DNA of 64,000 bases from an uncultured Rikenellaceae bacterium (GTDB lineage Bacteria; Bacteroidota; Bacteroidia; Bacteroidales; VadinHA17): positions 83,330-147,329 of the forward strand of contig CAZXAM010000001.1 in the NCBI GenBank assembly GCA_964638545.1, written 5' to 3'. The translations under genes were made by a program, and so were the position numbers. This document shows positions 1,484 to 45,926 of the stretch, one piece after another. The first letter of the stretch is position 1, and every line of letters begins with the position of its first letter. The notes beneath the pieces are model-generated. The model ran no database searches and had not been told where the DNA came from. It saw only the letters and a program-made list of their open reading frames with translations.

Positions 1484-4284
1484 TCATTTTACGGGACCCA
1501 GGTAATTATCCATGAAGGTTAAAACCTCCCTGATCATTTCATTTTTGGGGATGTAATGATCTGTTTCATAAATACGGATATGTTTATCCTTTAACGGAGT
1601 TCCCATCAGATCAAAAAAAGGTTTCACCGTTGTTTCATATGGAAATGCCATGTCATATTTTCCGTTTAGCATTAAAACTGGAATCCTTGCATAAGGAAGA
1701 TAATTGAACTCATCAGCTTCGGGAATTCGATCATTTGATTCCAGCCCTCCAACAATTAATACGCTCGCTTTAAGGCGGTCTTCAACTGCCGGGATAATAG
1801 CTCCGAGGCTAGCTCCCCAACTATGCCCGTAATAGCATAATTTCCCGGTGTCAATATCCGGTCGCGTCTGCAGGTAATCAATGGACCTGCTGAAATCTTT
1901 AACCCACTTAATTAACCATTCCTCATACTGACGGCCCTGCCAGGTTATAGTTTCCTGGCCATCTTTTCTCTCGAATGTTCCCTTGTAGACTGGGTATAAA
2001 ACAGCCCGGCCACTCTTAAGAATAAAATCGGTAAACCAGTTTGCCCAGTAATTATCGTTGAAGTCCTTGCTGCCAATCGCATTGCTTCCAGGGAAAAAGA
2101 TAAGGGTTTGGTAGGGAGGAGTTGTATTTCTAGGTAAAAAAAGATAACCGATCATTCTTTCATTGTCATAAGCCGCATTGAATGTAATTTTCTCGATAAT
2201 CCAATCCTGGAAACTGCTGTCACTGCTTTCAATTGCTGTGTTCAACTCCTTATTATCATAAAGAAACCTGTTTTTATAAATTCTGAATACAGATTCCGTA
2301 ACTGGCTTTTCTTTGGAATAATCTCTTTTTTCGCTGAATTCATAAGTCTGGAATGCAGTCTGTGGGATTTCCTCTTTATCGATATACTTAACACAACGAA
2401 ACCCGTTTTTTGGTGACCTGTTAAGAGGAGGCAGCTGGCTTATATTGCTGTACATGTAAACAACATCGTCCCATCCGCCACCTCGCACAACCCGTCCATC
2501 AGGTGCCATATTCCAGCACCATTCCCTCACATTCCCAGCCATATCGAAGGCACCAAAACAATTTATCCCCGGATTACTGCCTACCCTTTCCGCGCTAATT
2601 CCTTTAAAGTTGCTGAATGGAAAAAGTCTGGAATAAAAATAGTTACCGAATGCTTCATAGTCAAATCCAGATGCACTTGCCCAATGGCCGATCGTAGGAA
2701 GTTCCTTATCAGAATATTCGGCAAAGGCTGCAGCCTCGTACCAGCAGACTCCTGAAACCGGATAATCATCTTGTCCGTCCGGAAAATCGCCTGCTACCCA
2801 ATTGGAGGGTCCTGGCTGCCCGGTCTTGTCCGTAAATTCAGCCAAAGCTTCCTTAAAGGAAATTGTCTTTCCATCTTTTATGAATGTATTCTTCCAGAAT
2901 TCTGCCTTCCTGTAACCACCATTTTCGATGAATTCTTTGTACTGTCTGTTTGTTACTTCATAACGGTCAATAAAGAATCCATTTTTGGGCCCTAAGTAGT
3001 TACTTGTCAATTCGTTCTTGTAACCGTACACATAGACCATGCCTTCAGGCATTTCACCTAGTTTGAATAATTTGCGATAAACCGTGTCGATTCTTGTCTG
3101 CATTACCCCCAAAACACTTTCGTAACCAGGTTTCTCCATCTTCATCAGATAGAACGAATGTTTTGGTACCTGCAACTGTTCAATAGGTGTTTGGCCTAGA
3201 GCCTTCCATATGCCAGAAGTATCTGAGTATTCTCTGATCAGGACATTCGCTCCGACAGGTTCTGATATTATAGTAATCTTATTTGTAAAAGTTGAGACCA
3301 ATTCTATGAATCTTTCATCGTTTCCAATGTACTTTCCTGCTTTTTGAGATAAAGCAAATGCCTCATCCATTTTGGTTGCATTGGCCAATTGTTCAATCTT
3401 TGGCAAGGCTTCCCGTTTTGCCCAGTTAACCTTGGATTGATGATTAAGCAAAAATGATGTTCCGGTCAAAATTGCCAAAATTACCAGTATCCCAGGTATC
3501 AAAATCCAATGTTTGAACAAAATCCGGGACTTTTGATTATTCCCAGACTTATCTTTCTCTGTTAAGCCTTCAGGTCCTGACCTAATTATTTCGTTTTCAG
3601 ATATCTCTGAAACATTACTCTCCTTTCTCTTCTCGCCTGCTTTTCCCGCGATTTCTTTTTGCTTTGCTTTATCCTCTGGAGTATGATATTTCATACTTTC
3701 AATGATCTCCTTTATTGTCAACGCGACTTTATTTACCTGGTCACGGTAAAGTACCTGCCCCGAGCTTTTTATTATATCATCATCTTTAGCTCTAAGTTGA
3801 CGATTAACACCGGTTTCTTTATATACAAAGTCAATTGATCTCATCACACCTCCGACAACTGACTCAAATAGCCTGGTATCGGCAATTTCAAGGTCATGAA
3901 TCCGAATAGGAAGAACCCTGTTGGCAACATTGCCGCTGGATAGTTTAATTTTAAATCCAAACCTATCCTCTGTTGCCATCTTTATGAATGTTTTTAGCTC
4001 ATTGTCCCAGGCAAACGACCTTGGATCACAGTATGTCCGCGAAATATAGGCACAAAAACCAAGCTTTTCAGTTTATCTTGAAGTGAAGCATTCACATCAT
4101 AGGACTCAAGAAGATAGTCGCTGGGATTAATGTCAAAATATACACTTATTTCATCCTTAAACATTGTCTCAAGTTCTCCCTTCAGGTTATCTACAAACTC
4201 TGTTACCCACCCATCATGCTTGTTGTCCTTCTGGCGGTAGCTGATGAAGATGTCGTAATTATATCCTTCAATTATGCTTGACAT
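1484..4284 (-). pseudogene. Frameshifted paralogue of the TIR-TM-PEGA-FGE-like-alpha/beta-hydrolase receptor
   Basis: ORFs 3994..4287 (97 aa) and 1484..3979 (831 aa) are two halves of one gene. The 97-aa piece matches residues 1-80 of the intact paralogue (11579..14386), then leaves frame. Shifting frame at about 4045-4048 restores ISRTYCDPRSFAWDNELKTFIKMATEDRFGFKIKL, colinear with the paralogue. A 1-nt deletion in CCTAT.ATTTCG explains this. The true start is ATG 4284-4282 (the first M in the track is a TTG). It could also be a sequencing error. Confidence 0.75.
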
Positions 4285-4307
4285 CAATGTATTATTTGGT
4301 TCATTAT

Positions 4308-4339
4308 CAAAGTTAAACCATTGTCAGGCTAAATGCAAA
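4308..4339 (-). promoter_or_regulatory. Putative Bacteroidota sigma-A promoter (TTTGCA ... 20 nt ... TAACTTTG) of the TIR gene
   Basis: Minus-strand reading: TTTGCATTTAGCCTGACAATGGTTTAACTTTG, about 24 nt before the ATG. It fits the -33 TTTG / -7 TAnnTTTG consensus and is conserved upstream of four TIR genes. Confidence 0.5.
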
Positions 4340-4396
4340 ATATTCTTTTTATTTTAGAAAATCAATACAAAACCTCTACCAGTTCAACTAATTCTA

Positions 4397-4446
4397 CTAT
4401 GTCTCTGATTAAACTCAGGTTAGATATTTCAAACCTCTTGTCTACA
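4397..4446 (-). promoter_or_regulatory. Conserved ~50-nt upstream motif (CTATGTCTCTGATTAA.CTCAGGT.AGATATTT.AAACC..TTGT.TACA)
   Basis: Near-identical block at 14496..14545, at the same distance upstream of the other TIR-FGE gene. A 27-nt core, TCAAGGTTAGATATTTCAAACCTCTTG, recurs at 16219..16245. Confidence 0.5.
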
Positions 4447-4640
4447 CCAAAAAAGCCCTGGCGCAAAGCGCCGGGGTTTTTTATTGGAGATCCGTCATCC
4501 CGCCTTGCAGGATGTAAGGATCGAACAATAAAAACTCCGTACCGTGCGAATGCACGGCAGGGCTTTTTCGGTGTTAAGCACCCCCTGAGGAACGCGATCC
4601 GCCGGCTGGCGGAGAGCATAATCCTATGATCTACCCCCAA
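4444..4640. repeat. Composite ~195-bp intergenic repeat, copy 2
   Basis: Direct-orientation partner of 1170..1364. It also contains the small hairpin TCCGCC-GGCT-GGCGGA, which recurs at about 51132-51147. Confidence 0.75.
4449..4482 (-). terminator. Hairpin flanked by an A-run and a T-run, homologous to 1175..1209 but with a different stem sequence
   Basis: aaaaaagCCCTGGCGCaaaGCGCCGGGGtttttt. The structure is kept while the stem sequence differs from copy 1. Confidence 0.55.
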
Positions 4641-4898
4641 ACCCCACCTCGCCTTCGCGTAGCCGCTTCGGCGGAGCAAGGCAAGGGGGGCTTTAATGCT
4701 GAAAATAATTGACTATTTTTTATACAATAAAGCTCTCTAAAAGATTGCGCTGCAAGGCTTTTGACTTGTTAAGCACCCCCAAAAGGATCATGTAATAATC
4801 CTCCCCTTACCTCCCATCCGGATAATTTAACCTCATTCAAATGAATATATCTAATTGAAAATTCATTTATATCTGGCCAAATCTGGCGGAGCATAAAA

Positions 4899-7076
4899 TT
4901 ATTTTTTAGGCAGATTAACCTTTTTCAGAAATTCATCCCAACGGGGATCATCATGAAGAGATGTAAAAACCGGTAGTACGGCTGCCCAGGCTGCATTGCC
5001 TGAATGTGGTTCATAATTAAGCCATTTGAAAGCTTCATCTTTTCTACCCATTGCTGCATAAACCTTCGATCGTTGATATGCACTCATTGGCGTTACTTCT
5101 TTTTTTTCTATCTCGGCCAGGATCTTTTCAGCTTCCTCCTGGTGCCCTGTCGCAATATATGTCAGGCATAGGGGAAATAGATTGCCAGGAGCGACTTCTG
5201 CATGTTTCAAATGTGCTTTAATCGCTTCCTCATTTCTACCCAAACCCAGATACGCATTACCCAGTATCTGATAGCCAAGAGGATAATCCTTTTGAATTTC
5301 AAGGGATCTAAGGGCTTCCTGAATTGCTTCTTCATTCCTGCCCGCATAAATATATAAACCTCCCAGCCAGGCTGTATGGAGCGGATTATACGGATCATAT
5401 TTCTGAGCCAATTTATGTTCTGCAATGGCTTCTTCCATGCGACCCCAAAGGAACAGGCCCCAGGCAAAATGGTAATGGGCCATATCCAGGTTCGGATTTA
5501 ATTCCAGGGCACGCTTAAAATGTTTTTCTGATTTAGCAAAATCCCATGATTTATAGAGGTATACTATAGCCAGAGCAGCATGGACTTCAGCAATAGTAGA
5601 ATCAAGCATAAGTGCTTTATAAGCAAATTCTTCTCCTTTTGCGAGTACATCTCCGGGATCAAGCGGACTATGAGCAATTGACAGATAACCCAGTGCAAGC
5701 CCTGCGTTTGCAAATGCATCTTCAGGAGCGATCCTTACCGCTTCATGAAGGTATTCCAGTCCTTTTGCGTTTCCTTCTTTCGTCGATTTTTCTATTTCAG
5801 CCATTCCCCTGGAATATGCTTCATAAGATTGCGGATTGACCCTGCTTGGCTGAGAAAGTTTTAACAAGTCCTGCGGCAGTAAATCAAGTCCGATCTTCTG
5901 AGTAATCTGCTCTGCAATGTTTTTATGCACTATATGAATATTTGAACGGCTAATTGAATAATTGTTCGCCAGAATAAGTTTTTCTTCGGGAAATATCTGG
6001 ATCAGCCTTATCATAATTTCCTCAAGGTCACCGGATCCTAATACTGAACCTTCAATCAGAAAATCGACCCGGGCATCCTTAGCTATTTTGGCTAATGACA
6101 CTCTATCCCTTTCTAACGCAGCAGTTGTCCGTAAGCCTACAATTCTTAATGGTTTTACCTGGCTTATTCTTCCTAACTCCTGATACGAAGCCTCACGGTG
6201 CATATCAGTCAGATAATCATTTGAAGAATCACCTGTAAGATTTTTAAAAGGCATTAAAGCGACCGACCTTTCAACACCTGGCTCATCTGACTTTCTGAAT
6301 AATTTCGGATAAACAAGTATTGCAGCGATTATTAATATCACCGTGATTAATCCTCCATAAATTACCTTCTGTCTGGATGATTTTGAAATTCCTGCATGCT
6401 TCGATACTTTTTCTTCTCCGACTACTTCTTCGATTGTCCTTTTTTGTTGATCCTTTTCTATCAGTGATTCAGATGGTATTGTGAGTAATCCCATAATAAG
6501 CTCTTTTATTGCAAGAGCGACTTTATTTATCTGATTACGATAATTGGTTTTGTTTAAGTTTTTTTCCTCATTATCTTTTGGTGAAAGTGATCTGTTAACT
6601 CCTGGTTCTTTATAAATGAATTCGACACCACGGAGCACTCCTCCTGTCAGTGATTCACAAAGCTCTATATCCTCATTATCCAGGTCATGAATGCGAACAG
6701 GTAGAACTCTGCTGGCCACATTGCCATTTGGTAATTTTACTTTTAATCCAAACTGGTCCTTAGATGCCTGTTCAACAAACGCCTTAAATTCATGTTCCCA
6801 TGCAAAAGACTTTGGATCACAATAGGTTCGGGAAATAATCGGAATAAAAACCAGGCACCTGAGCTTTTCTTTCAGCGACTCATCCACATCATGTGTTTCA
6901 AGAAGGCCGTCATGAGGATTTATATCGAAGTAAACACTGATTTCTTCCTTAAAAGTGGCTTCGAGCTCTTTCTTCAGGTTTTCAACGAACTCAGTTACCC
7001 ACCCGTCATACTTGTTGTCCTTCTGGCGGTAACTGATAAAGATGTCGTAATTATATCCCTCAATTATACTTGACAT
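4899..7076 (-). CDS. TIR-domain single-pass membrane receptor with TolB-N-like + TPR periplasmic tail (725 aa)
   Basis: The N-terminus MSSIIEGYNYDIFISYRQKDNKYDGWV...VFIPIISRTYCDPKSFAWEHEF gives a TIR_2-like signature. One hydrophobic helix (VIYGGLITVILIIAAILVYP) follows. Next comes VALMPFKNLTGDSSNDYL...LIEGSV, the module seen in CadC/cyclase/kinase-linked TPR sensors. TPR-like repeats run to the C-terminus. Confidence 0.8.
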   Translation of the reverse strand: MSSIIEGYNYDIFISYRQKDNKYDGWVTEFVENLKKELEATFKEEISVYFDINPHDGLLETHDVDESLKEKLRCLVFIPIISRTYCDPKSFAWEHEFKAFVEQASKDQFGLKVKLPNGNVASRVLPVRIHDLDNEDIELCESLTGGVLRGVEFIYKEPGVNRSLSPKDNEEKNLNKTNYRNQINKVALAIKELIMGLLTIPSESLIEKDQQKRTIEEVVGEEKVSKHAGISKSSRQKVIYGGLITVILIIAAILVYPKLFRKSDEPGVERSVALMPFKNLTGDSSNDYLTDMHREASYQELGRISQVKPLRIVGLRTTAALERDRVSLAKIAKDARVDFLIEGSVLGSGDLEEIMIRLIQIFPEEKLILANNYSISRSNIHIVHKNIAEQITQKIGLDLLPQDLLKLSQPSRVNPQSYEAYSRGMAEIEKSTKEGNAKGLEYLHEAVRIAPEDAFANAGLALGYLSIAHSPLDPGDVLAKGEEFAYKALMLDSTIAEVHAALAIVYLYKSWDFAKSEKHFKRALELNPNLDMAHYHFAWGLFLWGRMEEAIAEHKLAQKYDPYNPLHTAWLGGLYIYAGRNEEAIQEALRSLEIQKDYPLGYQILGNAYLGLGRNEEAIKAHLKHAEVAPGNLFPLCLTYIATGHQEEAEKILAEIEKKEVTPMSAYQRSKVYAAMGRKDEAFKWLNYEPHSGNAAWAAVLPVFTSLHDDPRWDEFLKKVNLPKK

Positions 7077-7099
7077 CTGCCTATTAAATGGTTCATTAT

Positions 7100-7131
7100 C
7101 AAAATTAACCCATTATCAGGGTAATTGCAAA
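7100..7131 (-). promoter_or_regulatory. Putative promoter of the 4899..7076 TIR gene (TTTGCA ... TAATTTTG)
   Basis: Minus strand: TTTGCAATTACCCTGATAATGGGTTAATTTTG. Same architecture and near-identical sequence as at 4308..4339, 14409..14440 and 30113..30144. Confidence 0.5.
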
Positions 7132-7309
7132 AATTTTTTCTATGACTGAAGGCAACGGCAATGAAGCACAGCTGATGCGGGATTGCCAATTGATTCTGGC
7201 GTTTAAGGATCAGTTCATCTGGCTTAGACATCAAAATAATCTTCTATCTTGTATTTCATAGGTTTATTTTGTATTTTTGATATAACTGAGAGTAGCTAAA
7301 ACCCAGATA

Positions 7310-9265
7310 ATGAACCTGGCTCACACAAGTGACAGGGAGTTTATTCAAAAGCTGACTGAATTAGTCGAATTAAACCTTGAGGATGAAAAATTCGGAGTGG
7401 ATGTTCTTATACAACTCTCTGGCTTAAGTCCACACATTGTAAGGCAAAGGATTAAAAAAATCTCTCAAAAAACTATAAGCCAGTTCATTAACGAAATCAG
7501 GTTGCGACGGGCAATGGAGATGTTGCAACAGGGCATGATAACAGCCTCAGAAGTCGCCTATAAAGTAGGTTTCGGAAGCGCTACTTATTTTAACAACTGT
7601 TTCCATGATTTCTATGGTTATCCTCCGGGGGAAGTGAAGAAAAGAGGTATGACCGGGATTAAAGAGGACCATGGCGGACATGACCCAGGGAATTTGATGC
7701 CCGTATCAGTAAAGAAAAGACCCTCCCTTAAGCGGAAGATAGTGATCGTTTCATTTGCTCTTTTAGCTGTTCTTCTGTCAGCTCTTATAATTTATTATTT
7801 TCTGTTTAATAAATCGGGAAGAAATTTTAGCAGTCCGGACAAGGAAATCTCTATTGCAGTACTGCCTTTTACAAACCTGAGTGATTCTCCTGAAAACAGA
7901 TATTTCACGGATGGTGTAATGGAAGACATCCTGAGCAACCTGAACCGGATCAGTTCAATAAAGGTTACTTCCAGAACATCGGTTGAAAAGTACCGACAGA
8001 CAACCAGGGGTGCAACAGAAATAGCAAAAGAGCTGAACGTCAGGTATATTCTTGAGGGGAGTGTTCAGAGGAGCAATGATAAGGTAAGAGTCAGGGTGCA
8101 ACTGATCGATGCCAGGCGCGACCAGCATATTCTATCCGAAACATTTGACAGGGAGCTGGATGATATCTTCTATATCCAAAGCAATATTGCAATCCAGATA
8201 GCCAACGAACTGGAAGCTGCACTTTCGCCCGGGGAGACTGAAATGATCGGATATATCCCTACCAGGAATACAGAAGCCTATTCGCTCTATTTAAAAGGCC
8301 GTTATTTCTGGTATAAAAGGACAAGGGAAGGATTCGAAAAAAGTATTGAATTTTTCGAGAAAGCTGTTGAAGCCGATCCCGGTTATGCACTGGCATGGGC
8401 AGGACTGGGTGATGGCTATTTCTATCTTTCATGGTACAATTGGTTTGAACCTGGCCGGGAACAAGGATTTGAAAAAGCAAAAGAAATTGCATTGAAGGCC
8501 ATCAGACTTGATAATGACCTGGCGGAAGCTCATGTTTTGCTGGGAAATGTTTATTTCTGGCATGAATGGAACTGGCAGGAAGCAGAAAAGGAGTTGTCAT
8601 TAGCTGTCAAATTGAATCCGAACTATTACATGGCTCATTGGGTTTATGCAGAACTACTGGATGTTCTGGCCAAAAGAGTGGAAGCCAGAGCCCATTTAAA
8701 CCGCGCACTTGAACTGGACCCGGTTTTTTACCTCCCCTACAGCACCAGTGCATTGCTTTATTACAATGATGGAAATTTTAAGGGTGCGATTAAAGATTGC
8801 CACAAGTGCATTGAGTTAAATCCGGATTATAATTCAGCTTACTATCATGCCTGGTTTAGTTACCTGCAGCTCGACAGTATTCCCCAGGCTATTCACTTCC
8901 TTCAGGAATTGTTATTGGTTGATTATAATACCGGTTATTCAGATTCAAAATACTATGAATCTGTAGATTCCGTCTTCAAAACGGCAGGCATGGAAGGATT
9001 ACTGCAATGGATGCTTCAAAACAGATATGCGCAATCCAGTTTTATAGGAAAAGCCAGATTACTTATGATGATTGGCAACAGGGAGGAAGCGGTCAGGAGC
9101 CTTGAACTGGGATATAAATTGCATGAGCGTGATATGGTCAGAATCATCTCAATATATGATTTAGTTGATCTCCGCTCTGAGCCACGTTATATGGAAATCG
9201 TCAAAAACATGGGGTTGGCGGATTACTTAAATGTAGCCCTGGCTTCAGGACAGTTGCCACAATGA
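7310..9265 (+). CDS. AraC-family HTH single-pass membrane regulator with TolB-N-like + TPR periplasmic tail (651 aa)
   Basis: The N-terminal region FINEIRLRRAMEMLQQGMITASEVAYKVGFGSATYFNNCFHDFYGYPPGEV is a classic AraC/XylS HTH_18 region. It is followed by a TM helix (IVIVSFALLAVLLSALIIYYFLF), then ISIAVLPFTNLSDSPENRYFTDGVMEDIL...YILEGSVQ...VQLIDAR, then TPRs. The tail is roughly half identical by eye to the tail of the TIR protein at 57961..60105. Confidence 0.85.
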   Translation: MNLAHTSDREFIQKLTELVELNLEDEKFGVDVLIQLSGLSPHIVRQRIKKISQKTISQFINEIRLRRAMEMLQQGMITASEVAYKVGFGSATYFNNCFHDFYGYPPGEVKKRGMTGIKEDHGGHDPGNLMPVSVKKRPSLKRKIVIVSFALLAVLLSALIIYYFLFNKSGRNFSSPDKEISIAVLPFTNLSDSPENRYFTDGVMEDILSNLNRISSIKVTSRTSVEKYRQTTRGATEIAKELNVRYILEGSVQRSNDKVRVRVQLIDARRDQHILSETFDRELDDIFYIQSNIAIQIANELEAALSPGETEMIGYIPTRNTEAYSLYLKGRYFWYKRTREGFEKSIEFFEKAVEADPGYALAWAGLGDGYFYLSWYNWFEPGREQGFEKAKEIALKAIRLDNDLAEAHVLLGNVYFWHEWNWQEAEKELSLAVKLNPNYYMAHWVYAELLDVLAKRVEARAHLNRALELDPVFYLPYSTSALLYYNDGNFKGAIKDCHKCIELNPDYNSAYYHAWFSYLQLDSIPQAIHFLQELLLVDYNTGYSDSKYYESVDSVFKTAGMEGLLQWMLQNRYAQSSFIGKARLLMMIGNREEAVRSLELGYKLHERDMVRIISIYDLVDLRSEPRYMEIVKNMGLADYLNVALASGQLPQ

Positions 9266-9504
9266 TTGAATTGAGCAGTTGTATGTCTCGCACCTGCTCA
9301 GTCGCCAGGAATTTATGATATACAGCTGGTTCCGAAAAATCCTATCCTTAAAAAACCTTAAGGTTTTTTGAAAAGTTTCAACAATAGTTTTAAAAACTTC
9401 AACTTTCAGGAAAGAAATTTCTATGCACCCCCTTTCCGTTTTCCCGAAATTTATATAAGGATTGAATGAATAATCCTTCTTGTAAAACTTAAAACTTTTA
9501 TATC

Positions 9505-11007
9505 ATGAAAACACCTGGAAGATTTTTATTCATTGCGGCTTTTATGAGCCTGATCATTGGTTGCAGTGAGAAGGAGACTGGGATAGGCGGATTGGCTGAA
9601 TCAGATCTGAATATAGCATCATTAAATCTGAAAGCAGCAAGCGGTTCAGCCATATTTGTTGTCAATCCGAGCGGAGGTGATGATACCCCTGCTGTTTTAG
9701 AGGCATTTGATAACGCCAAAGCCGCCGGACCTGGCTCGGTGGTCCAACTGGAAGAAGGTACTTATCACCTGAATTTTCTGGAGGTACGTGAATTTAACGG
9801 TAAATTCAATGGAGCCGGCAGGGGTAAAACTATAATCACAACGGTACCTGATCTCGATGTTAACACACTGATCGATTTGAAATTAAATACAATTTTGATC
9901 CGATTTGTAGGAGGCGATGTTTGCATGAGTAACATGACAGTAACGACACCTTACGGCCCATTGAGCACAGGCAAGGAATCTTATATCGACGGACTGGTTG
10001 GATTTTCAGCCCGGACTTATCAGTATACTTCAATGAATGATTATATAAAAGCGGTTGTCGATAATGTCGGATTTAAAGGACACTGGGAAAATACTCTCCA
10101 TGGATTAAAAGCAGAATTCGGTACCAGAGCAAATGCAAGGATTCCCGGAGGATGGCCTCTCTCGTACATGGAGATTTCAGTCAATAACTGCTCTTTTGAT
10201 GGTTTCTATTCTTTTGGTGCACTTTTTCAACATTTCAACGGTGGAAAGATCGTTGCCGGAACCAAAAACCGCGGAAACATTTTTGATAACAATAGCGTAA
10301 GCGGAAATGTCCCATTTGAAACAGGAGGCGGTGGATCACTTGGGATCTGGAGTAATGTCAATGTTGAAATGTCTGTTGAGGGGAATACATTCACTGTCCC
10401 GGAGGGAGTACGTTGGGGTATTGAAATATTCAGTTCACCCGTTCCTGCCCGTCTCGCGCAGGTAACGCAAACAAAAGTTACGGTTTGCAATATTGAAAAA
10501 AATGTTTTCAACATTACCGGGGGTGCAGGAGGTGTGTCTGTCAATGACCGACGCCGATTCTTCTTTCCTGAAGAATTGCCTATGATTGTTCAGGTCAAAA
10601 ACAATATGTTCAATCTAAGTAATGAGACATTTTCGGCTATAAGTTCCTGTAACATGAAGGGTATGGTTATTCGGAATAACAAGTTTGAGGGAAATGGACA
10701 ATATGGAGTCCGGATAATCGGCCCCATTGTTGCCAGTAGTGGTCAGTCTCCCCTGCCGCCTAACGAAAATGGCCTGATGCTTGGTAACAACTATAGCAAT
10801 TCAACTTTTTCAGTAGCTTCAGTCCTTCTTGATGAACGAACAAATAACTGGACAATAGTGGGTGGTAACCTGGGTGAAAGTCTGATCGACATGACCAACG
10901 GGGCAGGAAATCATCTCATCACCGGAATGAATGTAAACACTTCCGATGTTCCTTTAGGCCAGACTATTACAGATAACCTGGAAGAAATAAGAGAAGGAAT
11001 GAAATAG
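9505..11007 (+). CDS. Secreted lipoprotein, probable right-handed parallel beta-helix (pectate-lyase-superfamily-like) protein
   Basis: Lipoprotein signal MKTPGRFLFIAAFMSLIIGC. The motif NPSGGDDTPAVLEAFDNAKAAGPGSVVQLEEGTYHL resembles the N-terminal cap of pectate_lyase_3-type beta-helix proteins. Repetitive N/G-rich turns follow. Confidence 0.5.
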   Translation: MKTPGRFLFIAAFMSLIIGCSEKETGIGGLAESDLNIASLNLKAASGSAIFVVNPSGGDDTPAVLEAFDNAKAAGPGSVVQLEEGTYHLNFLEVREFNGKFNGAGRGKTIITTVPDLDVNTLIDLKLNTILIRFVGGDVCMSNMTVTTPYGPLSTGKESYIDGLVGFSARTYQYTSMNDYIKAVVDNVGFKGHWENTLHGLKAEFGTRANARIPGGWPLSYMEISVNNCSFDGFYSFGALFQHFNGGKIVAGTKNRGNIFDNNSVSGNVPFETGGGGSLGIWSNVNVEMSVEGNTFTVPEGVRWGIEIFSSPVPARLAQVTQTKVTVCNIEKNVFNITGGAGGVSVNDRRRFFFPEELPMIVQVKNNMFNLSNETFSAISSCNMKGMVIRNNKFEGNGQYGVRIIGPIVASSGQSPLPPNENGLMLGNNYSNSTFSVASVLLDERTNNWTIVGGNLGESLIDMTNGAGNHLITGMNVNTSDVPLGQTITDNLEEIREGMK

Positions 11008-11030
11008 AAATTCAACTTATCTTGAATTGC

Positions 11031-11064
11031 CGGATTGCAGTTGGCTTCAGCCAACTGCAATCCG
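11031..11064 (+). terminator. Intrinsic terminator-like hairpin after the lipoprotein gene
   Basis: CGGATTGCAGTTGGC-ttca-GCCAACTGCAATCCG: a perfect 15-bp stem followed by tcgttttctc. A related GGCTTCAGCC core recurs at about 60196-60209. Confidence 0.6.
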
Positions 11065-11230
11065 TCGTTTTCTCAACATATACTAAAGTAGAAAAGCCGG
11101 TGACCTTGACCACTTTAACCTATACTTGATTGACCACCTATTATCAAAACTAATCCTCTGATAAATAAACAAATACTTAATTGATATTATGACCGGCTGA
11201 ATCTGGTCAGGCCTTCCGGCTTAGGCTGGG

Positions 11231-11437
11231 GAAGAAGATCCTTCACTTCGTTCAGGATGACAGTCATTAGTAGAATGTAAGTGGGGATGAAGCGGCGCGT
11301 TTTGTATTATGTTGTTTCTATGAACAGATTTTCTACGAAACGCGCCGCTTCATCCCCTATAACCTGATACCTGCACCTGTCATCCTGAATGCAGCCAATA
11401 CCGAGTGAGCGAGGTATTGGCGAAATGAAGGATCTCC
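11231..11437. repeat. Nested palindromic REP/MITE-like element
   Basis: The outer arms are GAAGAAGATCCTTCACTTCGTTCAGGATGACAG (11231-11263) and CTGTCATCCTGAA[32-nt hairpin GCCAATACC..GGTATTGGC]GAAATGAAGGATCT (11378-11435). The inner part is a perfect 20-bp inverted repeat, GGGGATGAAGCGGCGCGTTT (11283-11302) / AAACGCGCCGCTTCATCCCC (11338-11357), with a 35-nt loop. Confidence 0.8.
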
Positions 11438-11495
11438 TTCCTATTCCGGTTTGCAGGTATAATAATCATAGGTAAAGCCAACACTCCGGGGTTGA
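11384..11495. repeat. 112-bp repeat immediately 3' of a TIR gene, copy 1
   Basis: Aligns without gaps to 27512..27623, with about 9 mismatches by hand count. The aligned sequence is CCTGAATGCAGCCAATACCG.GTGAGCGAGGTATTGGCGAAATGAAGGATCT...AATAATCATAGGTAAAGCCAAC.CTCCGGGGTTGA. Confidence 0.8.
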
Positions 11496-11578
11496 GTGTA
11501 TCCCGGGCATCTCTGACCACGGGTGTGACCGTGGTTATTGGAATTCCAGCGCTGCAAGGCTTTTTCGTTGTTTGGTTT

Positions 11579-14386
11579 TTATTTTACCCTACCAAGATAG
11601 ATGTCAAGGAATTCAAGGACATCCTTTATCATATCATCTTTGCGAATATAATGGTCAGTATCATAAATCTTTAAATGCTTATCTTCTGGCTGCGTTCCCA
11701 AAAGATCATAAAAAGGTTTTACGTTTGTCTCAAATGGAAATGCAAGATCATATTTGCCGTTCAACATTAATACTGGTATCTTTACATAAGGCAGATAATT
11801 TAATTCATCTGCTTCAGGAATGCGTTTTCTCGTAGGTAAGCCCCCGACAATTAAGACACTAACTTTAAGACGGTCTTCAACTGCAGGAATTATCGCTCCA
11901 AGTCTCCCGCCCCAGCTATGACCATAGTAGGCCAGTTTCCCGGTATCAATATCCGATCTGGTAAAAAGATAATCAATCGATCTTTTAAAATCCTTAACCC
12001 ATTTAGTCAACCAATCAGCGTACTGATGGCCCTCATTTGTTACTGGTTTTTCGTTATCTATTCTTTCAAAGGTCCCATCATAAACCGGATATAGGACAGC
12101 ACGTCCGCTCTTCAGAATAAAGTCTGTGAACCAATTTGCCCAGTAATTTTTATTGAAATCCGTGGTACTAAGCGCATTACTGCCGGGGAAAAAAATGAGT
12201 GTCTGATAGGGCGGTGGAGAATTTTTTGGTATGAAGAGATATGCAATCATCTTTTCATTATTATACGCTGCATTGAAGGTGACTTTTTCAAGTATCCAAT
12301 CCTGATAACTGCTGTCCCGGCTTTCTATCAGGGCGTCTAATGGTATATTATCATAAAGAAACCTGCTTTTATAAATCCTGTAGGTAACCTCCGGAACCGG
12401 CCTTTCGATTGCATAGTTTCTGGATTCAGGGAGTATATACGATTGAAAAGCCGATTCAGGAATTTTTTCTTCATTTAAATATTTAACACATCGAAATCCA
12501 TTTTTGGGTGATCTGTCAAATGGAGGCAGCTGACTTATATTACCATACATATAAACAACATCATCCCACCCGCCTCCTCTCATTATCCTGCCATCAGGAC
12601 CCTGGTTCCAGCACCATTCTCTTACATTGCCCGCCATATCAAGCGCCCCGAAGCAGTTAATTGCAAAATTGGTTCCAACAGGTAAAGGGCCTGCTCCTTT
12701 AAAGTTGCTTAAAGGAAATAGTTTTGAATAGAAATAGTTTCCGAATGCTTCAAATTGGAATCCAGCTGCACTTCCCCAGTGATTGACGGTTGGAAGTTTC
12801 TTGCCGGCGTATTCAGCATAGGCTGCAGCCTCATACCAACTTATACCAGATACCGGATAATTTTCATATCCATCAGGGTAGTCGCCGGCAATCCACGTTG
12901 ATGGTCCGGGTTGTCCCGTTTTGTCCTTAAACTCAGTGAATGCCTCACTTAACGTTAATTTTTTCCCATCCTTTATGAAGTCATATTTCCAGTATTCTGG
13001 TTTCCTGTAACCACCTTCATTAACGAATTTTTTAAATTCTTTATTGGTAACTTCACAGCGATCAATCAAAAAACCATTCTTGTTTTTAAGATAATTACCT
13101 AATAATTCATTCTGGTAACCATATACATATATCATCCCGGGTGGAATAGTTCCCTGCTTGAATAACCTTCTGAAAATCGTATCAATCCTTGTCTGCATTA
13201 CAGCATCAATACTCTCATAGCCGGGTTTTTCAATTTTCATAAGGTAGAAGCTATGTTTTGGGACCAGGACTTGTCCTATCGGTGTCTTACCAAGATACTT
13301 CCATTGAGCAGCCGTATCAGAAAAGTCTCTGATCCTTACCTCCGCACCATCAGGATCAGTAATAATTGAAATATTTGTGGTAAAAGAAGATACCAATTCA
13401 TTGTAATTCTTGTTTTTTGAAAGATACTTTGCAACTTCCTGAGACAGCTTAAATGCTTCATCCATATTATTGCTGTTTGCAAGCTGTTCAATTTGAGGTA
13501 GCGCTTTTTCTCTTGCCCATTTGATCTTTGATTGCCGGTTAATTAAAATACCAATCATTAAAACAGAAGATAAAACAAACAGTATTAAAAGGAACATAAA
13601 CCATTTCCTTTTAAATAATAAAATCGCTCTTCTTCTTTCAGGGATTGGTAACTCCATTATTTGATCCTTCCCGATTACTTCTCCATTTTTATATTCAGGT
13701 TTTTCTGACCTAATTCTAATTTCATCTTCCCCCTTATGATCAAAATCTCTGATGTTATTTTCGGTCTTCATGTTCTCAGATGAGAAGGATATCATACTAT
13801 CAACCATCTCCTTGATTGCTAATGCAACCTTATTAATCTGGTCTCGGAAAAGTACCTGGCCCGGATATCTTACTATATCATCATCCTTACTTCTCAGCTG
13901 TCGGTTTACACCTGTTTCCTTATAAACAAAATCAATTGATCTCATAATACCGCCAACAACTGATTCGAATAATTTTATATCCCCTGGATCAAGATCATGA
14001 ATCCGGATTGGCAACACTCTGCACGCCACATTTCCGTTCAGAAGCTTGATTCTTAATCCAAACTTGTCTTCAGATGCCAGCTTCACAAATTCTTTCAACT
14101 CATTGTCCCAGGCAAATGCTTTTGGATCGCAATATGTCCTTGAAACAATCGGAATGAATATCAGACATTTGAGTCTGTCTCTTAAAGAGTCTTTTACGTC
14201 ATATGATTCAAGAAGATAGTCGCTGGGATTTATATCATAATATAGACTTACATCATCTTTAAACATTGAATCAAGTTCTCCTTTGAGATTCTCAACAAAC
14301 TCCGCCACCCAGTTATCGTGTTTGTTATCCTTCTGGCGGTAACTAATAAAGATGTCGTAATTGTAACTTTCAATAATGCTTGACAT
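11579..14386 (-). CDS. TIR-TM-PEGA-FGE/SUMF1-like-alpha/beta-hydrolase receptor (935 aa)
   Basis: TIR head at residues 1-~190 (DIFISYRQKDNKHDNWV...IFIPIVSRTYCDPKAFAWDNEL). TM helix at about 262-282 (WFMFLLILFVLSSVLMIGILI). PEGA-like segment at about 338-395 (ITDPDGAEVRIRD...GKTPIG...KIEKPGYES). FGE-sulfatase-like domain at about 418-636 (IDRCEVTNKEFKKFV...GNVREWCWN...RGGGWDD...GFRCVKY). C-terminal alpha/beta-hydrolase with G-H-S824-W-G, D880 and H912 (DLH / S9-peptidase-like). Confidence 0.85.
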   Translation of the reverse strand: MSSIIESYNYDIFISYRQKDNKHDNWVAEFVENLKGELDSMFKDDVSLYYDINPSDYLLESYDVKDSLRDRLKCLIFIPIVSRTYCDPKAFAWDNELKEFVKLASEDKFGLRIKLLNGNVACRVLPIRIHDLDPGDIKLFESVVGGIMRSIDFVYKETGVNRQLRSKDDDIVRYPGQVLFRDQINKVALAIKEMVDSMISFSSENMKTENNIRDFDHKGEDEIRIRSEKPEYKNGEVIGKDQIMELPIPERRRAILLFKRKWFMFLLILFVLSSVLMIGILINRQSKIKWAREKALPQIEQLANSNNMDEAFKLSQEVAKYLSKNKNYNELVSSFTTNISIITDPDGAEVRIRDFSDTAAQWKYLGKTPIGQVLVPKHSFYLMKIEKPGYESIDAVMQTRIDTIFRRLFKQGTIPPGMIYVYGYQNELLGNYLKNKNGFLIDRCEVTNKEFKKFVNEGGYRKPEYWKYDFIKDGKKLTLSEAFTEFKDKTGQPGPSTWIAGDYPDGYENYPVSGISWYEAAAYAEYAGKKLPTVNHWGSAAGFQFEAFGNYFYSKLFPLSNFKGAGPLPVGTNFAINCFGALDMAGNVREWCWNQGPDGRIMRGGGWDDVVYMYGNISQLPPFDRSPKNGFRCVKYLNEEKIPESAFQSYILPESRNYAIERPVPEVTYRIYKSRFLYDNIPLDALIESRDSSYQDWILEKVTFNAAYNNEKMIAYLFIPKNSPPPYQTLIFFPGSNALSTTDFNKNYWANWFTDFILKSGRAVLYPVYDGTFERIDNEKPVTNEGHQYADWLTKWVKDFKRSIDYLFTRSDIDTGKLAYYGHSWGGRLGAIIPAVEDRLKVSVLIVGGLPTRKRIPEADELNYLPYVKIPVLMLNGKYDLAFPFETNVKPFYDLLGTQPEDKHLKIYDTDHYIRKDDMIKDVLEFLDIYLGRVK

Positions 14387-27674: not shown

Positions 27675-30089
27675 TCAGTTCTGATTATACTTTTCCAAGA
27701 TATTCTTAAACTCAGGCTGATTTTTTAATGGTTCCCATATCGGGTCCGTCTCGAGGATCTTAGTTGAGAGGAATCCCGGCATTGCCAAAAGATATTTTAT
27801 TTGCTCCAATGCTTCAGGGTATTTTCCAATCATCACATAGGTATGTGCAAGATCCTCAACCAGGAAAACTCCCCTCCATGCTTCTTTGCTTACCGGGAGC
27901 ATCTTTACGGCTTTCTCATTTAGGCTGACTGCTGCTTCTTCCATGCCTAATCCGGCATTAGCTATTCCCAGAGAACTGTACAGCCTAGGATCCTGCGGAA
28001 AACGATTGATCATATTTTCAAGCATTATGCGGGCTGAATCGTAATAGGCATGCTCGAGCTCAGGTTTATTAATAAAACCGTAAGCAGCAGCATAGTAAAG
28101 ATATTTTGGCCTGAAATAAAACTGACTCTGAAATGCGGCCGATGAGGTCAACGAAAGATCTGCCAGAGCTTCTTTGTATCTGCCATCATATAAATCTATA
28201 ACGACTTTCAATTCTACAAAAAGGGAATCTGACATAAAAGACCTGTTATTAATTTCTCCGTTTTCCAGTACTGCCCTTGCTTTTTTACTGTCGCCCTGCC
28301 ATCTGAGAAACATCTGAGACATGTAAAGATATGGTTGAATCCATTCCGGCTGAAGCATGATAGACAAATTATAATAATATTCAGCTTTCGGATAGTTTCG
28401 ACGCAGGTCAAATATTTCAGCAGCATCATCTGCATACCGGGAAGATCTAGGGTCAAGTTCAAAAGCCCTGGTTAAACAAGACTCCGCCAATGCCCAGTTC
28501 CCTGACCGCCTGTGTACAGCCCCTGACCAATATATAGCTTCCGTGTTTTTGGGTTGCTCTTTCAGTACTATTTCAAATTGTTTAAGGGCTTCAGGGTAAT
28601 TCAAATAACCCATATAGTAATAAATCCCAAAAACCAGATGGGCCTCGGGAAGGTCGGGATCAATCTCGAAAGCTATGTCAATAGCCTGTTTGCACTTAGG
28701 GATTATATCTTCACTTCTGTCCTGGTTAAACCAGTATCTGATCAATAAGCAATAAGCAGTTCCTGTATAAGCCAGGGCAAATTCAGGATCAAGTTCTATT
28801 GCTTTTCCATATAGTTTGTTGGCGGTTTTCAGGTCTTCAATATCGAAACTTTTCCGATAATAGAAATTCGCCTGAAGATAGTAATTGTAAGCTTCCAGGT
28901 TATTTGTCGGTTTCTTTTCAATTTTTTCTAATTCGTCAGGCGACAGAATCTCTTTAAGTTCGCTCGCAATGTCTTTGGCTATGTCGCTCTGAAGAGAAAA
29001 GATCTGTTGCATTTCCCTAACATATTCATTTGACCAGATATGTTTATCGGATTTTGAATCAATCAATTGAACCCAAATCTTTAATTTATTCCCTTCACGT
29101 CCAACACTCCCTTCAACCAGATAATTTGCATTAAGCTCGTTACCGATTATAGCAATGGATTTTTTTGAATCCCTGTATTGGTCTGAAGATGTTCTGGACC
29201 TTACCGTGAAACTTTTTACTGTCTGAAGATTATTGAGGACCTCCTCCATAAAACCATCACAAAAGTACAACTGGGTTGTATCATTGCTGAGGTTCCGGAA
29301 AGGGAGAACCGCAATAGTTTTTTCAGTCGTTTTGAACGGTTTAATGTATTTAGGAATAAAGAAGTACGCAAGCAGAACAAGAACAAGCAATACGAAAATA
29401 ACCGTAATGATTTTTGGTTTCAGATTTCTTCCCAGTTCAGGCTTTTCTTCTACATATCCTTTTGAAACCTTGCCACCCTCTATACTAAATGCATTCAGGG
29501 CAGAAATAACCTCTTTGATTGCATTACCAACCTTATTTATCTGGTTCCTGTAATTTGTATGATTCAGATTTTCCTGTGGATTTTCCTCCTTCGGCATCAA
29601 TGGCCTGTTTACCCCAGCCGATCTGAAGATAAAGTCAACACCGCGAAGCATTCCGCCCAAAACTGATTCACACGATTTAATATCGGTGGCGTCCAGATCA
29701 TAAATACGAACAGGAAGTACTCTGCTCGCAACATTCCCGTTAGGTAATTTTACCTTCAATCCAAACCTGTCATTGGATGCCTGCTCCACAAATGCCTTAA
29801 ACTCATGCTCCCATGCAAAGGATTTCGGATCGCAGTACGTGCGGGAAATAATCGGAATAAAAACCAGGCACCTGAGCTTTTCTTTCAGCGACTCATCCAC
29901 ATCATGTGTCTCAAGAAGTCCGTCATGAGGATTTTGATCGAAGTAGACACTGATTTCTTCCTTAAAAGTGGCTTCGACCTCTTTCTTAAGGTTTTCAACG
30001 AACTCAGTTACCCATCCGTCATACTTATTGTCTTTCTGTCGGTAACTGATAAAGATGTCGTAATTATATCCTTCGATAATGCTTGACAT
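27675..30089 (-). CDS. TIR-domain single-pass membrane receptor with TolB-N-like + TPR periplasmic tail (804 aa)
   Basis: Head residues 1-129 differ from the 4899..7076 protein at only 4 positions by my count. A TM helix (IITVIFVLLVLVLLAYFFIP) follows, then IAVLPFRNLSNDTTQLYFCDGFMEEVL...YLVEGSV...VQLID, then a long TPR-like region. Confidence 0.8.
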   Translation of the reverse strand: MSSIIEGYNYDIFISYRQKDNKYDGWVTEFVENLKKEVEATFKEEISVYFDQNPHDGLLETHDVDESLKEKLRCLVFIPIISRTYCDPKSFAWEHEFKAFVEQASNDRFGLKVKLPNGNVASRVLPVRIYDLDATDIKSCESVLGGMLRGVDFIFRSAGVNRPLMPKEENPQENLNHTNYRNQINKVGNAIKEVISALNAFSIEGGKVSKGYVEEKPELGRNLKPKIITVIFVLLVLVLLAYFFIPKYIKPFKTTEKTIAVLPFRNLSNDTTQLYFCDGFMEEVLNNLQTVKSFTVRSRTSSDQYRDSKKSIAIIGNELNANYLVEGSVGREGNKLKIWVQLIDSKSDKHIWSNEYVREMQQIFSLQSDIAKDIASELKEILSPDELEKIEKKPTNNLEAYNYYLQANFYYRKSFDIEDLKTANKLYGKAIELDPEFALAYTGTAYCLLIRYWFNQDRSEDIIPKCKQAIDIAFEIDPDLPEAHLVFGIYYYMGYLNYPEALKQFEIVLKEQPKNTEAIYWSGAVHRRSGNWALAESCLTRAFELDPRSSRYADDAAEIFDLRRNYPKAEYYYNLSIMLQPEWIQPYLYMSQMFLRWQGDSKKARAVLENGEINNRSFMSDSLFVELKVVIDLYDGRYKEALADLSLTSSAAFQSQFYFRPKYLYYAAAYGFINKPELEHAYYDSARIMLENMINRFPQDPRLYSSLGIANAGLGMEEAAVSLNEKAVKMLPVSKEAWRGVFLVEDLAHTYVMIGKYPEALEQIKYLLAMPGFLSTKILETDPIWEPLKNQPEFKNILEKYNQN

Positions 30090-30240: not shown

Positions 30241-31569
<1,329 letters not shown>

Positions 31570-31576
31570 TTATTAG

Positions 31577-32854
<1,278 letters not shown>

Positions 32855-32890
32855 TTAAAGATTCTTAATTTATTGAATTGATACTATTTC

Positions 32891-34207
<1,317 letters not shown>

Positions 34208-34258
34208 TTAAAATATAACAATAACTTTTTCTATCATTTATTCTTATCAGTCAGTTGT

Positions 34259-35560
<1,302 letters not shown>

Positions 35561-45915: not shown

Positions 45916-45926
45916 AAACTACTGAT

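Follow-up and report, generated by a model that had tools for sequence, protein, structure and literature searches.

To our knowledge, nearly all that is understood of bacterial TIR domains at present concerns cytosolic anti-phage NADases and signal generators, or secreted virulence factors. Metazoan Toll-like receptors (TLRs) join a solenoid-repeat (LRR) ectodomain through one transmembrane (TM) helix to a cytoplasmic TIR domain, which is C-terminal, in a type I topology. In membrane one-component regulators of the ToxR/CadC/HilA and AraC types, a single TM helix separates the cytoplasmic output at the N terminus, which is a DNA-binding domain (winged helix or HTH), from a periplasmic sensor. 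A recent survey of TIR systems in E. coli states that bacterial TIR systems seem to lack the transmembrane and repeat-ectodomain features of TLRs (PMC11350192). Kaur, Burroughs, Iyer and Aravind have described TIR-STAND-FGS and TIR-TPR conflict systems, which are cytoplasmic, NTPase-gated and often DGR-diversified or EAD-linked (PMC7159879, PMC8195603).

Our analysis of the window (the whole stretch of DNA that was analysed, 64,000 nt) revealed five minus-strand ORFs with a common N-terminal head of ~200 aa, located where a first-pass annotation had placed them and bearing, in all five copies, the head motifs it had quoted. The motifs DIFISYRQKDNK, SRTYCDP and FAW-[ED]-x-E occur in every copy, and the order of domains is always head, linker, one TM helix and large tail. 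The five genes and a paralogue with a different head are laid out as follows.

4899-7076, minus strand: copy A, whole ORF, 725 aa
6480..7076, minus strand: copy A head, aa 1-199, divergent TIR, with the E96 codon at 6789-6791
6297..6365, minus strand: copy A TM helix, aa 238-260, Kyte-Doolittle maximum 2.66, the sole hydrophobic segment in copy A
4899..6296, minus strand: copy A predicted periplasmic tail and stop codon, a TolB_N/FlgO-like module followed by TPR repeats
11579-14386, minus strand: copy B, whole ORF, 935 aa, with a tail made up of PEGA-like (aa 337-398), FGE-sulfatase-like (aa 434-635) and alpha/beta hydrolase (aa ~700-935, GHSWG) domains
13790-14386, minus strand: copy B head, with the E96 codon at 14099-14101
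13541-13603, minus strand: copy B TM helix, aa 262-282
27675-30089, minus strand: copy C, whole ORF, 804 aa, LpoB/FlgO-like and TPR tail
29493-30089, minus strand: copy C head
29343-29411, minus strand: copy C TM helix, aa 227-249
57961-60105, minus strand: copy D, whole ORF, 714 aa, FlgO-like and TPR tail
59509-60105, minus strand: copy D head
59362-59430, minus strand: copy D TM helix, aa 226-248
1484-4284, minus strand: copy E, whole ORF, frame broken by one T missing at 4042-4044
about 3446-3511, minus strand: copy E TM helix, aa about 259-280
7310..9265, plus strand: AraC-headed paralogue, with HTH_18, one TM helix and a TolB_N/FlgO-like and TPR tail

As had been read from the sequence at first pass, none of the five copies has an N-terminal signal peptide and each has one hydrophobic helix. 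Addition of one T to the T-run at 4042-4044 restores a continuous ORF of 933 aa in copy E, and the frame break may for this reason be a sequencing error rather than the mark of a pseudogene; the restored protein shares 76% identity with copy B in the head and 69% in the tail. FGE-sulfatase and DLH were matched directly in copy E, whose tail corresponds, by this identity, to the PEGA, FGE-sulfatase-like and alpha/beta-hydrolase tail of copy B.

The head is a divergent TIR-superfamily domain, as profile-profile alignment, fold search and domain swaps all indicate. TIR_2 (PF13676; STIR clan) was the only Pfam match to the isolated heads in hmmscan (E=0.003-0.07; copy A E=0.003); the match starts at profile position 1, spans only positions 1-78 of 122 and, with 18.5 bits at best against the required 28, misses the gathering threshold. 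Therefore the initial description of the head as TIR_2-like stands at the level of remote homology only. The TIR-like FxsC_Nterm model of NCBIfam gave E=0.002-0.009. Alignment by hhalign of the head profile to 43 bona fide TIR_2 domains covered the whole domain with P=1e-3 (A1) and 6.4e-4 (A3), and the real score was 32.9, compared with 12.6-13.2 for reversed controls and 27.9 for the best of 60 column shuffles.

Structure prediction pointed the same way, to a TIR fold of alternating flavodoxin-like beta-alpha units (betaA to alphaE). An AF2 model of the head built from a diversified alignment reached pLDDT 84.6 and pTM 0.84; it replaced a first run on a shallow alignment of ~80%-identical sequences, which had given pLDDT 62 and an ambiguous mix of flavodoxin-like and TIR matches. 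Every one of the top 34 Foldseek matches of the diversified-alignment model in the PDB was a TIR domain, including RUN1, SARM1, RPP1, AbTir, PdTIR, BtpA, MyD88 and TLRs, with probabilities of mostly 1.00 (0.85-1.00). The Foldseek E-values (from 1.2e-4) and target-normalised TM-scores (0.5-0.64) are modest because of two family-specific insertions, which the model shows as beta-hairpins at about aa 106-122 and 150-165. Searches of PDB chains with the head sequence and the head profile recovered no solved TIR by sequence alone, and neither Pfam nor Foldseek matched the head to a DNA-binding family or fold.

Residue E96, which the first-pass annotation had put roughly at the catalytic Glu position of TIR NADases, is invariant in 68 of 68 heads and falls on the invariant Glu (E75) when aligned with the canonical TIR_2 profile. 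A loop with residues D51, N53, P54, H55 and D56 is conserved as well. In the model it lies inside a predicted helix (91-105) and would correspond to the conserved Glu at the start of helix C of TIR domains. The concern raised at first pass about the spacing around this residue is resolved, since the interval from S90 to E96 (S+6) is canonical and the Trp alone is displaced by one residue. The head has the fold of the bacterial TIR_2 proteins AbTir, PdTIR, BtpA/TcpB and Thoeris ThsB, together with their betaA motif D-[IV]-F-I-S-Y and their conserved Glu. It differs from them in its sub-threshold Pfam score, the two hairpins, a long C-terminal helix and the displaced Trp, and its conservation far exceeds that of typical bacterial TIRs. 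The receptors as a whole, in contrast to TIR_2 proteins, are membrane-anchored, have a periplasmic domain and lack an adjacent ThsA-type or other effector gene.

The placement of the head on the cytoplasmic side finds its main support in the TM helix and tail that these receptors have in common with AraC-HTH paralogues. The AraC-headed protein in the window matches Pfam HTH_18 (E=1e-14), and its TM helix and tail share 33% identity with copy D across 503 aa (E=5e-75). An HTH domain is necessarily cytoplasmic. In relatives, homologous TM and tail modules are headed by canonical TIR_2 domains (L022, E=3e-20; L034, E=3e-21), and across 713 aa the tail of copy B shares 40% identity (E=1e-166) with a protein that bears such a head. 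To judge from these alignments, the head studied here, canonical TIR_2 heads and AraC-HTH heads are clearly interchangeable on homologous TM and tail modules. Because the same modules bear TIR_2 or AraC heads elsewhere, the head should be a cytoplasmic output and the tail periplasmic, and this supports the ToxR/CadC-type topology predicted at first pass. The families to which the tail domains belong (TolB_N, FlgO, LpoB, PD40, PEGA) are periplasmic, and the positive-inside bias flanking the TM helix is weak. The two relatives with canonical heads (L022:3798-5681, TIR_2-TM-TPR, and L034:3121-5703, TIR_2-TM-FGE-hydrolase), from the same clade of Bacteroidales, have an identical chassis with a TIR-superfamily head in the same position; their heads pass the Pfam TIR_2 threshold (E about 1e-20) and are named TIR by NCBI, whereas the window heads form a separate unannotated subfamily, aligned to them by BLAST in the DxFISY motif only.

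The exchange of the head for an AraC HTH on one chassis is also what might be expected if the TIR likeness were merely ancestral and the domain acted as a nucleotide- or cofactor-binding regulator, or contacted the transcription machinery as AraC heads do. The hairpin insertions and the long C-terminal helix, absent from canonical TIRs, and the missed Pfam threshold fit such a function, as does the position of copies C and D on either side of a xylan-utilisation locus (PUL) without a recognisable regulator. We nevertheless consider it very improbable: the same tails bear canonical TIR_2 heads in precisely this position, promoter specificity could not come from heads that are almost identical in all paralogues, and the structural matches include no DNA-binding fold. 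With a TIR output in the place where ToxR/CadC/HilA- and AraC-type regulators have a DNA-binding domain, the signal cannot reach a promoter directly.

Among the tail domains proposed at first pass, TPR and FGE-sulfatase (E=4e-26) scored strongly, the membrane-proximal TolB_N/FlgO/LpoB-like module and the DLH/PETase-type hydrolase weakly, and PEGA fell just under its threshold (20.3 against 20.8 bits); the hydrolase, its weak score notwithstanding, has a GHSWG nucleophile elbow. The tail of copy A was assigned from Pfam TPR families and from NCBIfam matches resembling the C-terminal parts of HilA and CadC, against which the receptor tails score. A catalytic FGE role for the FGE-sulfatase domain appears unlikely, as no FGE-type Cys pair is evident in its sequence after RGGGW.

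Heads and tails have followed different courses, the heads being under strong purifying selection and the tails divergent. Pairwise identity among the five heads is 60-85% in protein and 62-76% in DNA, with dN/dS of 0.05-0.07 and dS about 1 or saturated; among the TPR-type tails (copies A, C and D) identity is 26-33%, and between tails of unlike type it is 22-26%. Recent gene conversion as a source of the likeness between heads was rejected on the grounds of this low DNA identity and of these dS values.

What had been taken for a five-member family comprises at least 1,138 clusters at 50% identity and at least 566 loci, nearly all from uncultured Bacteroidales, whose genomes hold several copies each; the related genomes are all uncultured MAGs, and the members are labelled "hypothetical" or "TPR" protein in the sources. 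In relatives elsewhere the tail is sometimes a PD40 beta-propeller. Soluble proteins also bear the head, in the arrangements head-STAND-NTPase-TPR, head-DUF6272-SiaC, head-ACT and head-TPR, and the few fusions to STAND NTPases are of the NB-ARC/NACHT kind. The gene for the soluble relative with DUF6272 and SiaC adjoins genes for a response-regulator-PP2C phosphatase, a histidine kinase and a FIST sensor, and in this protein the head occupies the output position of a partner-switch module. The many database proteins of ~200 aa that looked like stand-alone adaptors consisting of the head only were dropped as such, both of the two inspected being frameshift fragments with the tail ORF directly after.

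These soluble proteins bear on the possibility that the head is a non-catalytic scaffold. By analogy with the recruitment of MyD88 by TLRs, or with the 'effector-associated domain' principle, activated heads would recruit putative soluble head-bearing partners through homotypic TIR-TIR assembly, and the output would reside in the partners. In agreement with this, the same head is found joined to signalling or NTPase modules in soluble proteins, and a shared interaction surface predicts the extreme conservation of the head across paralogues with unrelated tails; the BB-loop region is moreover highly conserved, yet flexible in the AF2 model. On the other side, the invariant E96 and many invariant polar residues suggest chemistry and not packing alone, and no adaptor gene linked to the receptor genes was found. 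We therefore regard a pure scaffold as conceivable but rather doubtful.

The genomic surroundings bear on another proposal of the first-pass annotation, that of phage defence. TIR domains which retain the Glu are typically NAD+-consuming defence effectors. The periplasmic domains would here sense an adsorbing phage or a damaged envelope, whereupon the TIR head would deplete NAD+, leading to death or arrest of the cell. The retained Glu and the head-STAND NTPase fusions in a few relatives are in keeping with it; so is the DUF4143/AAA_14 ATPase (PADLOC candidate system PDC-S01), the most frequent neighbour, whose gene adjoins copy B. This ATPase, however, accounts for only 4 of the 109 neighbouring proteins, in which 122 Pfam families were found, each matched by at most 4 of the 109. 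A search of 79 related loci revealed no conserved operon partner outside the family and no defence island; nor did these loci show the hallmark of Thoeris and other TIR-signalling defence systems, a TIR gene linked within a defence island to the gene for its effector (ThsA-like SLOG, Macro etc.). Nothing nearby was recognised as the receptor or the effector of a putative signal made by the TIR. PADLOC matches among the neighbouring proteins were sparse, and for the receptor proteins PADLOC returned nothing at E<=1e-3, the sole match being bSEFIR (E=0.009) in one copy. The gene contexts are those of housekeeping or polysaccharide utilisation, the window itself holding the xylan PUL and RND efflux genes; Rfam gave no match over the window. 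Multiple copies per genome, a near-identical effector and strong purifying selection (dN/dS as above) are unlike known arms-race defence genes, and coupling NAD+ depletion to many periplasmic sensors would be hazardous for the cell. Abortive infection is consequently an unlikely role for these proteins.

We lean instead, if only slightly, towards transmembrane sensors with a TIR output that serve signalling from the environment or the envelope and not abortive-infection immunity. The receptors would be type II (N-in), single-pass proteins of the inner membrane, in which the variable periplasmic domain, either a TolB_N-like module with a TPR solenoid or PEGA with a non-catalytic FGE/C-type-lectin-like domain and an alpha/beta hydrolase, would act as the sensor and the N-terminal ~200 aa, a divergent TIR keeping the catalytic-type Glu and a conserved BB-loop region, as the cytoplasmic output. 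Binding of an extracytoplasmic ligand would alter the oligomeric state of the receptor and bring the cytoplasmic heads together, and their assembly may then lead to NAD+ cleavage or to an NAD-derived signal, as in other TIR proteins. Such NADase or signal-nucleotide chemistry of the head is purely what we infer. Since the paralogues all bear nearly the same head, diverse periplasmic cues would converge on one common cytoplasmic read-out.

In its layout the family follows the logic of TLRs, and both groups are multi-paralogue with variable sensors and a conserved TIR. The TIR of the window family is N-terminal in a type II protein, its ectodomain is TPR, PD40 or FGE-like instead of LRR, and its heads keep the catalytic-type Glu that TLR TIRs lack; no MyD88-like adaptor was identified for the family. 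The resemblance is one of analogy, with no evidence of orthology. With the TIR-STAND-FGS and TIR-TPR conflict systems the family has in common the combination of a TIR with an FGE-sulfatase (C-type-lectin-fold) or TPR sensor, and it is unlike them in having no NTPase, a sensor across a membrane helix and genes that stand alone. A further-reaching reading, which we consider less likely than not, is that environmental Bacteroidales possess in these proteins a large family of TLR counterparts, in which the binding of a ligand to periplasmic solenoid, propeller or lectin-like sensors would be relayed through the inner membrane by assembly of a conserved TIR enzyme making an NAD-derived messenger for routine nutrient or envelope signalling.

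As at first pass, the receptors could be assigned to no described system: the searchable literature, where absence is no proof of absence, yielded no TIR-TM-periplasmic receptor, and a TLR-style layout of a cytoplasmic TIR relative with variable periplasmic sensors was not found described for bacteria. The impression that TLR features are absent from bacterial TIR systems is contradicted by more than 1,000 clusters of multi-copy proteins with a periplasmic repeat sensor, one helix and a predicted cytoplasmic TIR. The unusually strong purifying selection and the location outside defence islands are likewise contrary to the current view of bacterial TIRs. Provided that the heads are active, TIR chemistry would serve bacteria as a general output of transmembrane signalling, with a bearing on the origin of TLR-like architectures. 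Annotation pipelines, in which the members now pass as "hypothetical" or "TPR repeat protein", would gain a new TIR subfamily. Should the reading of these receptors as TLR counterparts be true, they would constitute a new class of transmembrane signalling beside histidine kinases, chemoreceptors, anti-sigma factors and ToxR-like regulators.

ORF listing and translation of the window confirmed five minus-strand genes, copies A to E, that share one N-terminal head of about 200 residues (about 190 in the first-pass annotation), followed by a linker, one transmembrane (TM) helix and a large tail. These genes and the neighbours discussed here are as follows:

1484-4284, minus strand: copy E, interrupted frame
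4899-7076, minus strand: copy A, 725 aa
7310-9265, plus strand: AraC-headed receptor paralogue with HTH_18 head, one TM helix and TolB_N/FlgO-like plus TPR tail
11579-14386, minus strand: copy B, 935 aa
14627-15880, minus strand: AAA_14 plus DUF4143 ATPase, next to copy B on its upstream side
27675-30089, minus strand: copy C, 804 aa
30241-56386: xylan-utilisation locus, with SusC/SusD at 42682-47924 and GH10 genes at 40801, 51295 and 55277
30241-35539: four tandem PF00756 esterase paralogues
57961-60105, minus strand: copy D, 714 aa

Exactly one strong hydrophobic helix was present in each of the five proteins at about residues 226-282 (previously put at 230-285), and no N-terminal signal peptide was found in any of them, as had been proposed. 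The frameshift noted earlier in copy E was traced to a single missing T in the T-run 4042-4044, which separates a head fragment from an ORF of 831 aa; insertion of one T restores a clean frame of 933 aa. This break could be an assembly error, since many "short" relatives in long-read MAGs are frameshift fragments of the same type. Many members of the family are split in this way in these MAG assemblies, and the database relatives P0027 and P0080, considered as stand-alone 200-aa heads, were rejected as such fragments, with tail ORFs directly after them (L080:4001-5952 and L081:4001-5942).

In sequence databases the head is barely visible as a TIR domain. Family members are named "hypothetical protein" or "TPR repeat protein" in their sources, the Pfam scan of the full-length proteins gave no match to any TIR model at E<0.01, and the sole PADLOC match was bSEFIR in one copy (E=0.009). 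The isolated head matched TIR_2 alone in Pfam, from profile position 1 (E=0.003), with a score of 18.5 bits that lies below the family threshold of 28 bits; NCBIfam gave a weak match to the TIR-like FxsC_Nterm, and a search against PDB sequences found nothing. The TIR_2-like assignment of the first-pass annotation thus fails by Pfam score, but is upheld by profile-profile comparison, predicted fold, the catalytic-type residue and domain swaps. Against a profile built from 43 bona fide TIR_2 domains, the first head alignment profile matched the TIR domain end to end (P=1e-3) and the diversified head profile matched from betaA to just past betaD (P=6.4e-4); the profile-profile score was 32.9 versus 12.6-13.2 for reversed controls and 27.9 for the best of 60 column shuffles. 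Canonical TIR_2 heads are, moreover, borne on the same TM and tail modules in related Bacteroidales loci: in L022:3798-5681 the TIR_2 head (E=3e-20) is joined to a TPR tail, and in L034:3121-5703 another (E=3e-21) precedes an FGE-sulfatase plus hydrolase tail that is 40% identical to that of copy B over 713 aa (E=1e-166), the alignment starting at the membrane helix. That canonical TIR_2 sits in this very position on these tails speaks against a non-TIR function of the head.

A first AlphaFold run on a shallow alignment yielded pLDDT 62 and ambiguous flavodoxin-like matches. With a diversified alignment of 68 sequences the model reached pLDDT 84.6 and pTM 0.84, and its 34 top PDB matches were TIR domains in every case, including RUN1, SARM1, RPP1, AbTir, L7, PdTIR, BtpA, MyD88, TLR1/2/10 and ThsB. 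The predicted order of elements is the canonical betaA-alphaE. Peculiar to this family are two inserted beta-hairpins, at about residues 106-122 and 150-165; the model also has a long helix at the C-terminus (179-199) that runs into the linker. The invariant E96, suggested earlier to sit roughly at the place of the catalytic Glu of TIR NADases, starts helix C in the model, pairs with the invariant TIR_2 Glu in the alignment and occupies the canonical S+6 position counted from the conserved S90; the concern over its spacing is met because Trp alone is displaced, by one residue. A more divergent subfamily with the motif SQTYCDPxSYAWQ[YNH]EF keeps E96 and not E94. Taken together, the domain swaps, the profile-profile match and the predicted structure make it very probable that the head represents a divergent, unannotated TIR subfamily.

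The orientation of the receptors is indicated by the AraC-headed paralogue, which lies between copies A and B and whose TM and tail match copy D from the helix onward (33% identity, E=5e-75); more AraC-headed versions are present in related loci. As a DNA-binding head is necessarily cytoplasmic, this homology argues, in agreement with the first-pass annotation, that the shared tail is periplasmic and that the TIR head takes the cytoplasmic output slot. It likewise argues that one chassis carries heads of three kinds: DNA-binding, canonical TIR_2 and divergent TIR. The tail families (TolB_N, FlgO, LpoB and PEGA, the last at 20.3 bits versus a threshold of 20.8, with PD40 propellers in relatives) are typical periplasmic modules and fit this placement. 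A predicted 500-aa lipoprotein (signal ...LIIGC, no Pfam match) is encoded at 9505-11007 on the plus strand, 240 bp beyond the end of the AraC-headed receptor gene and in the same direction; it is a possible target or partner of this regulator.

The family extends beyond the five members first described: exhaustive HMMER search returned at least 1,138 clusters at 50% identity (E<=1e-3), 526 of them at E<=1e-30. The head was N-terminal in the best 150 matches, nearly all at residues 1-197, and one helix near residue 230 was found in 124 of 142 long representatives and none in 18. By likeness to the window tails, 107 of 140 representatives carry a TolB_N-like module, with or without TPR, and 5 of 140 an FGE-type tail; most of the remaining representatives sampled have PD40 propellers. 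Soluble forms join the head to TPR only, NB-ARC/NACHT plus TPR, DUF6272 plus SiaC, or ACT. One of them, P0181 (L082:1464-3035, DUF6272 plus SiaC), adjoins a response-regulator-SpoIIE (PP2C) phosphatase, a histidine kinase and two FIST-domain genes; this is a partner-switching module in which the TIR-like head apparently forms the output. Species-representative genomes contained at least 566 loci, of which the best 80 are almost all from MAGs of uncultured Bacteroidales (or so-called "Rikenellaceae") recovered from fen, soil and sediment, with several loci per genome; in 21 of 79 loci two or three copies are found no more than about 6 kb from the one matched. A few matches (L005, L044, P0078) come from MAGs labelled as archaeal or CPR (Methanofastidiosum, Dojkabacteria, ANME-2). 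As these matches sit on short contigs of 2-4 kb and share about 80-87% identity with the Bacteroidales heads, the contigs are most likely mis-binned.

Among the window copies the heads share 60-85% of protein residues and only 62-76% of DNA positions, while tail identity is 26-33% within the TPR type (A, C, D), 22-26% between tails of unlike type and 69% between copies B and E. Recent gene conversion is ruled out as the source of head likeness by this DNA identity and by dS about 1 or saturated; together with a head dN/dS of 0.05-0.07, these values point to an old similarity maintained by selection.

The window is not a defence island. Copies C and D lie on either side of the xylan-utilisation locus (SusC/SusD, four GH10, one GH43, the four PF00756 esterases, a carboxylesterase and an aldose epimerase), in which no recognisable HTCS, ECF or SusR-type regulator was found; copy C follows the esterase array by 151 bp in the same orientation. 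The window also carries an RND efflux operon with a TetR regulator, together with genes for an MFS transporter, a 5'-nucleotidase and a D-Ala-D-Ala ligase-like protein. In the 79 related loci none of the genes outside the family is conserved: 109 flanking proteins covered 122 Pfam families, each matched by at most four proteins, the commonest being AAA_14/DUF4143 ATPases (4 of 109), which correspond to PADLOC candidate system PDC-S01, as does the ATPase beside copy B. Classical abortive-infection defence, and with it the NAD+ depletion against phage proposed at first, is disfavoured by genomic context, copy number and purifying selection on the head.

In 10 of 79 loci (L039:8808-11678 and nine others) a secreted protein of about 956 aa with YadA_head repeats and a Peptidase_S74 (endosialidase chaperone) domain is encoded close to the family genes. 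GC-rich, structured intergenic elements lie beside receptor genes at 4400-4800 (38-nt direct repeat, 4548-4585 and 4743-4780; 20-nt hairpin, 4444-4463 with 4555-4574) and at 11230-11441 (61-nt imperfect inverted repeat, 11246-11306 with 11334-11394); neither matched Rfam. The 105-aa ORF 4362-4679 is probably spurious.

By homology the closest relatives are bacterial TIR_2 domains, and by logic Toll-like receptors and membrane one-component regulators of the ToxR/CadC type. The likeness to Toll-like receptors is by analogy only, because the orientation is opposite and LRRs are lacking; ToxR differs in output, and the system is not Thoeris-like because the head genes have no effector partner. 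The TIR-STAND-FGS and TIR-TPR conflict systems of the Aravind laboratory are cytoplasmic and NTPase-gated (PMC7159879, PMC8195603), and a 2024 survey of E. coli noted TLR-type transmembrane and repeat features apparently absent from bacterial TIR systems (PMC11350192). As the first-pass annotation had supposed, no description of TIR-TM-periplasmic-sensor receptors was found in the literature searched. Hence, this comparison suggests a TIR subfamily and a receptor architecture that are both new; a putative function is outlined below.

At its output position the one-helix chassis accepts any of three heads (AraC HTH, canonical TIR_2 or the TIR-like head), and the last of these retains a catalytic-type Glu and a conserved BB-loop region, flexible by prediction. 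A periplasmic ligand may alter receptor oligomerisation, upon which the TIR heads would assemble in the cytoplasm and cleave NAD+ or yield an NAD-derived signal. The main rival is a non-catalytic scaffold, in which the heads would recruit soluble head-bearing proteins via homotypic TIR assembly. Under the proposed catalytic signalling, near-identical heads sitting on very different sensors would let many inputs converge on one read-out, a parallel to chemoreceptors, whose conserved cytoplasmic tips and variable sensor domains resemble the conserved TIR heads and variable tails of this family.
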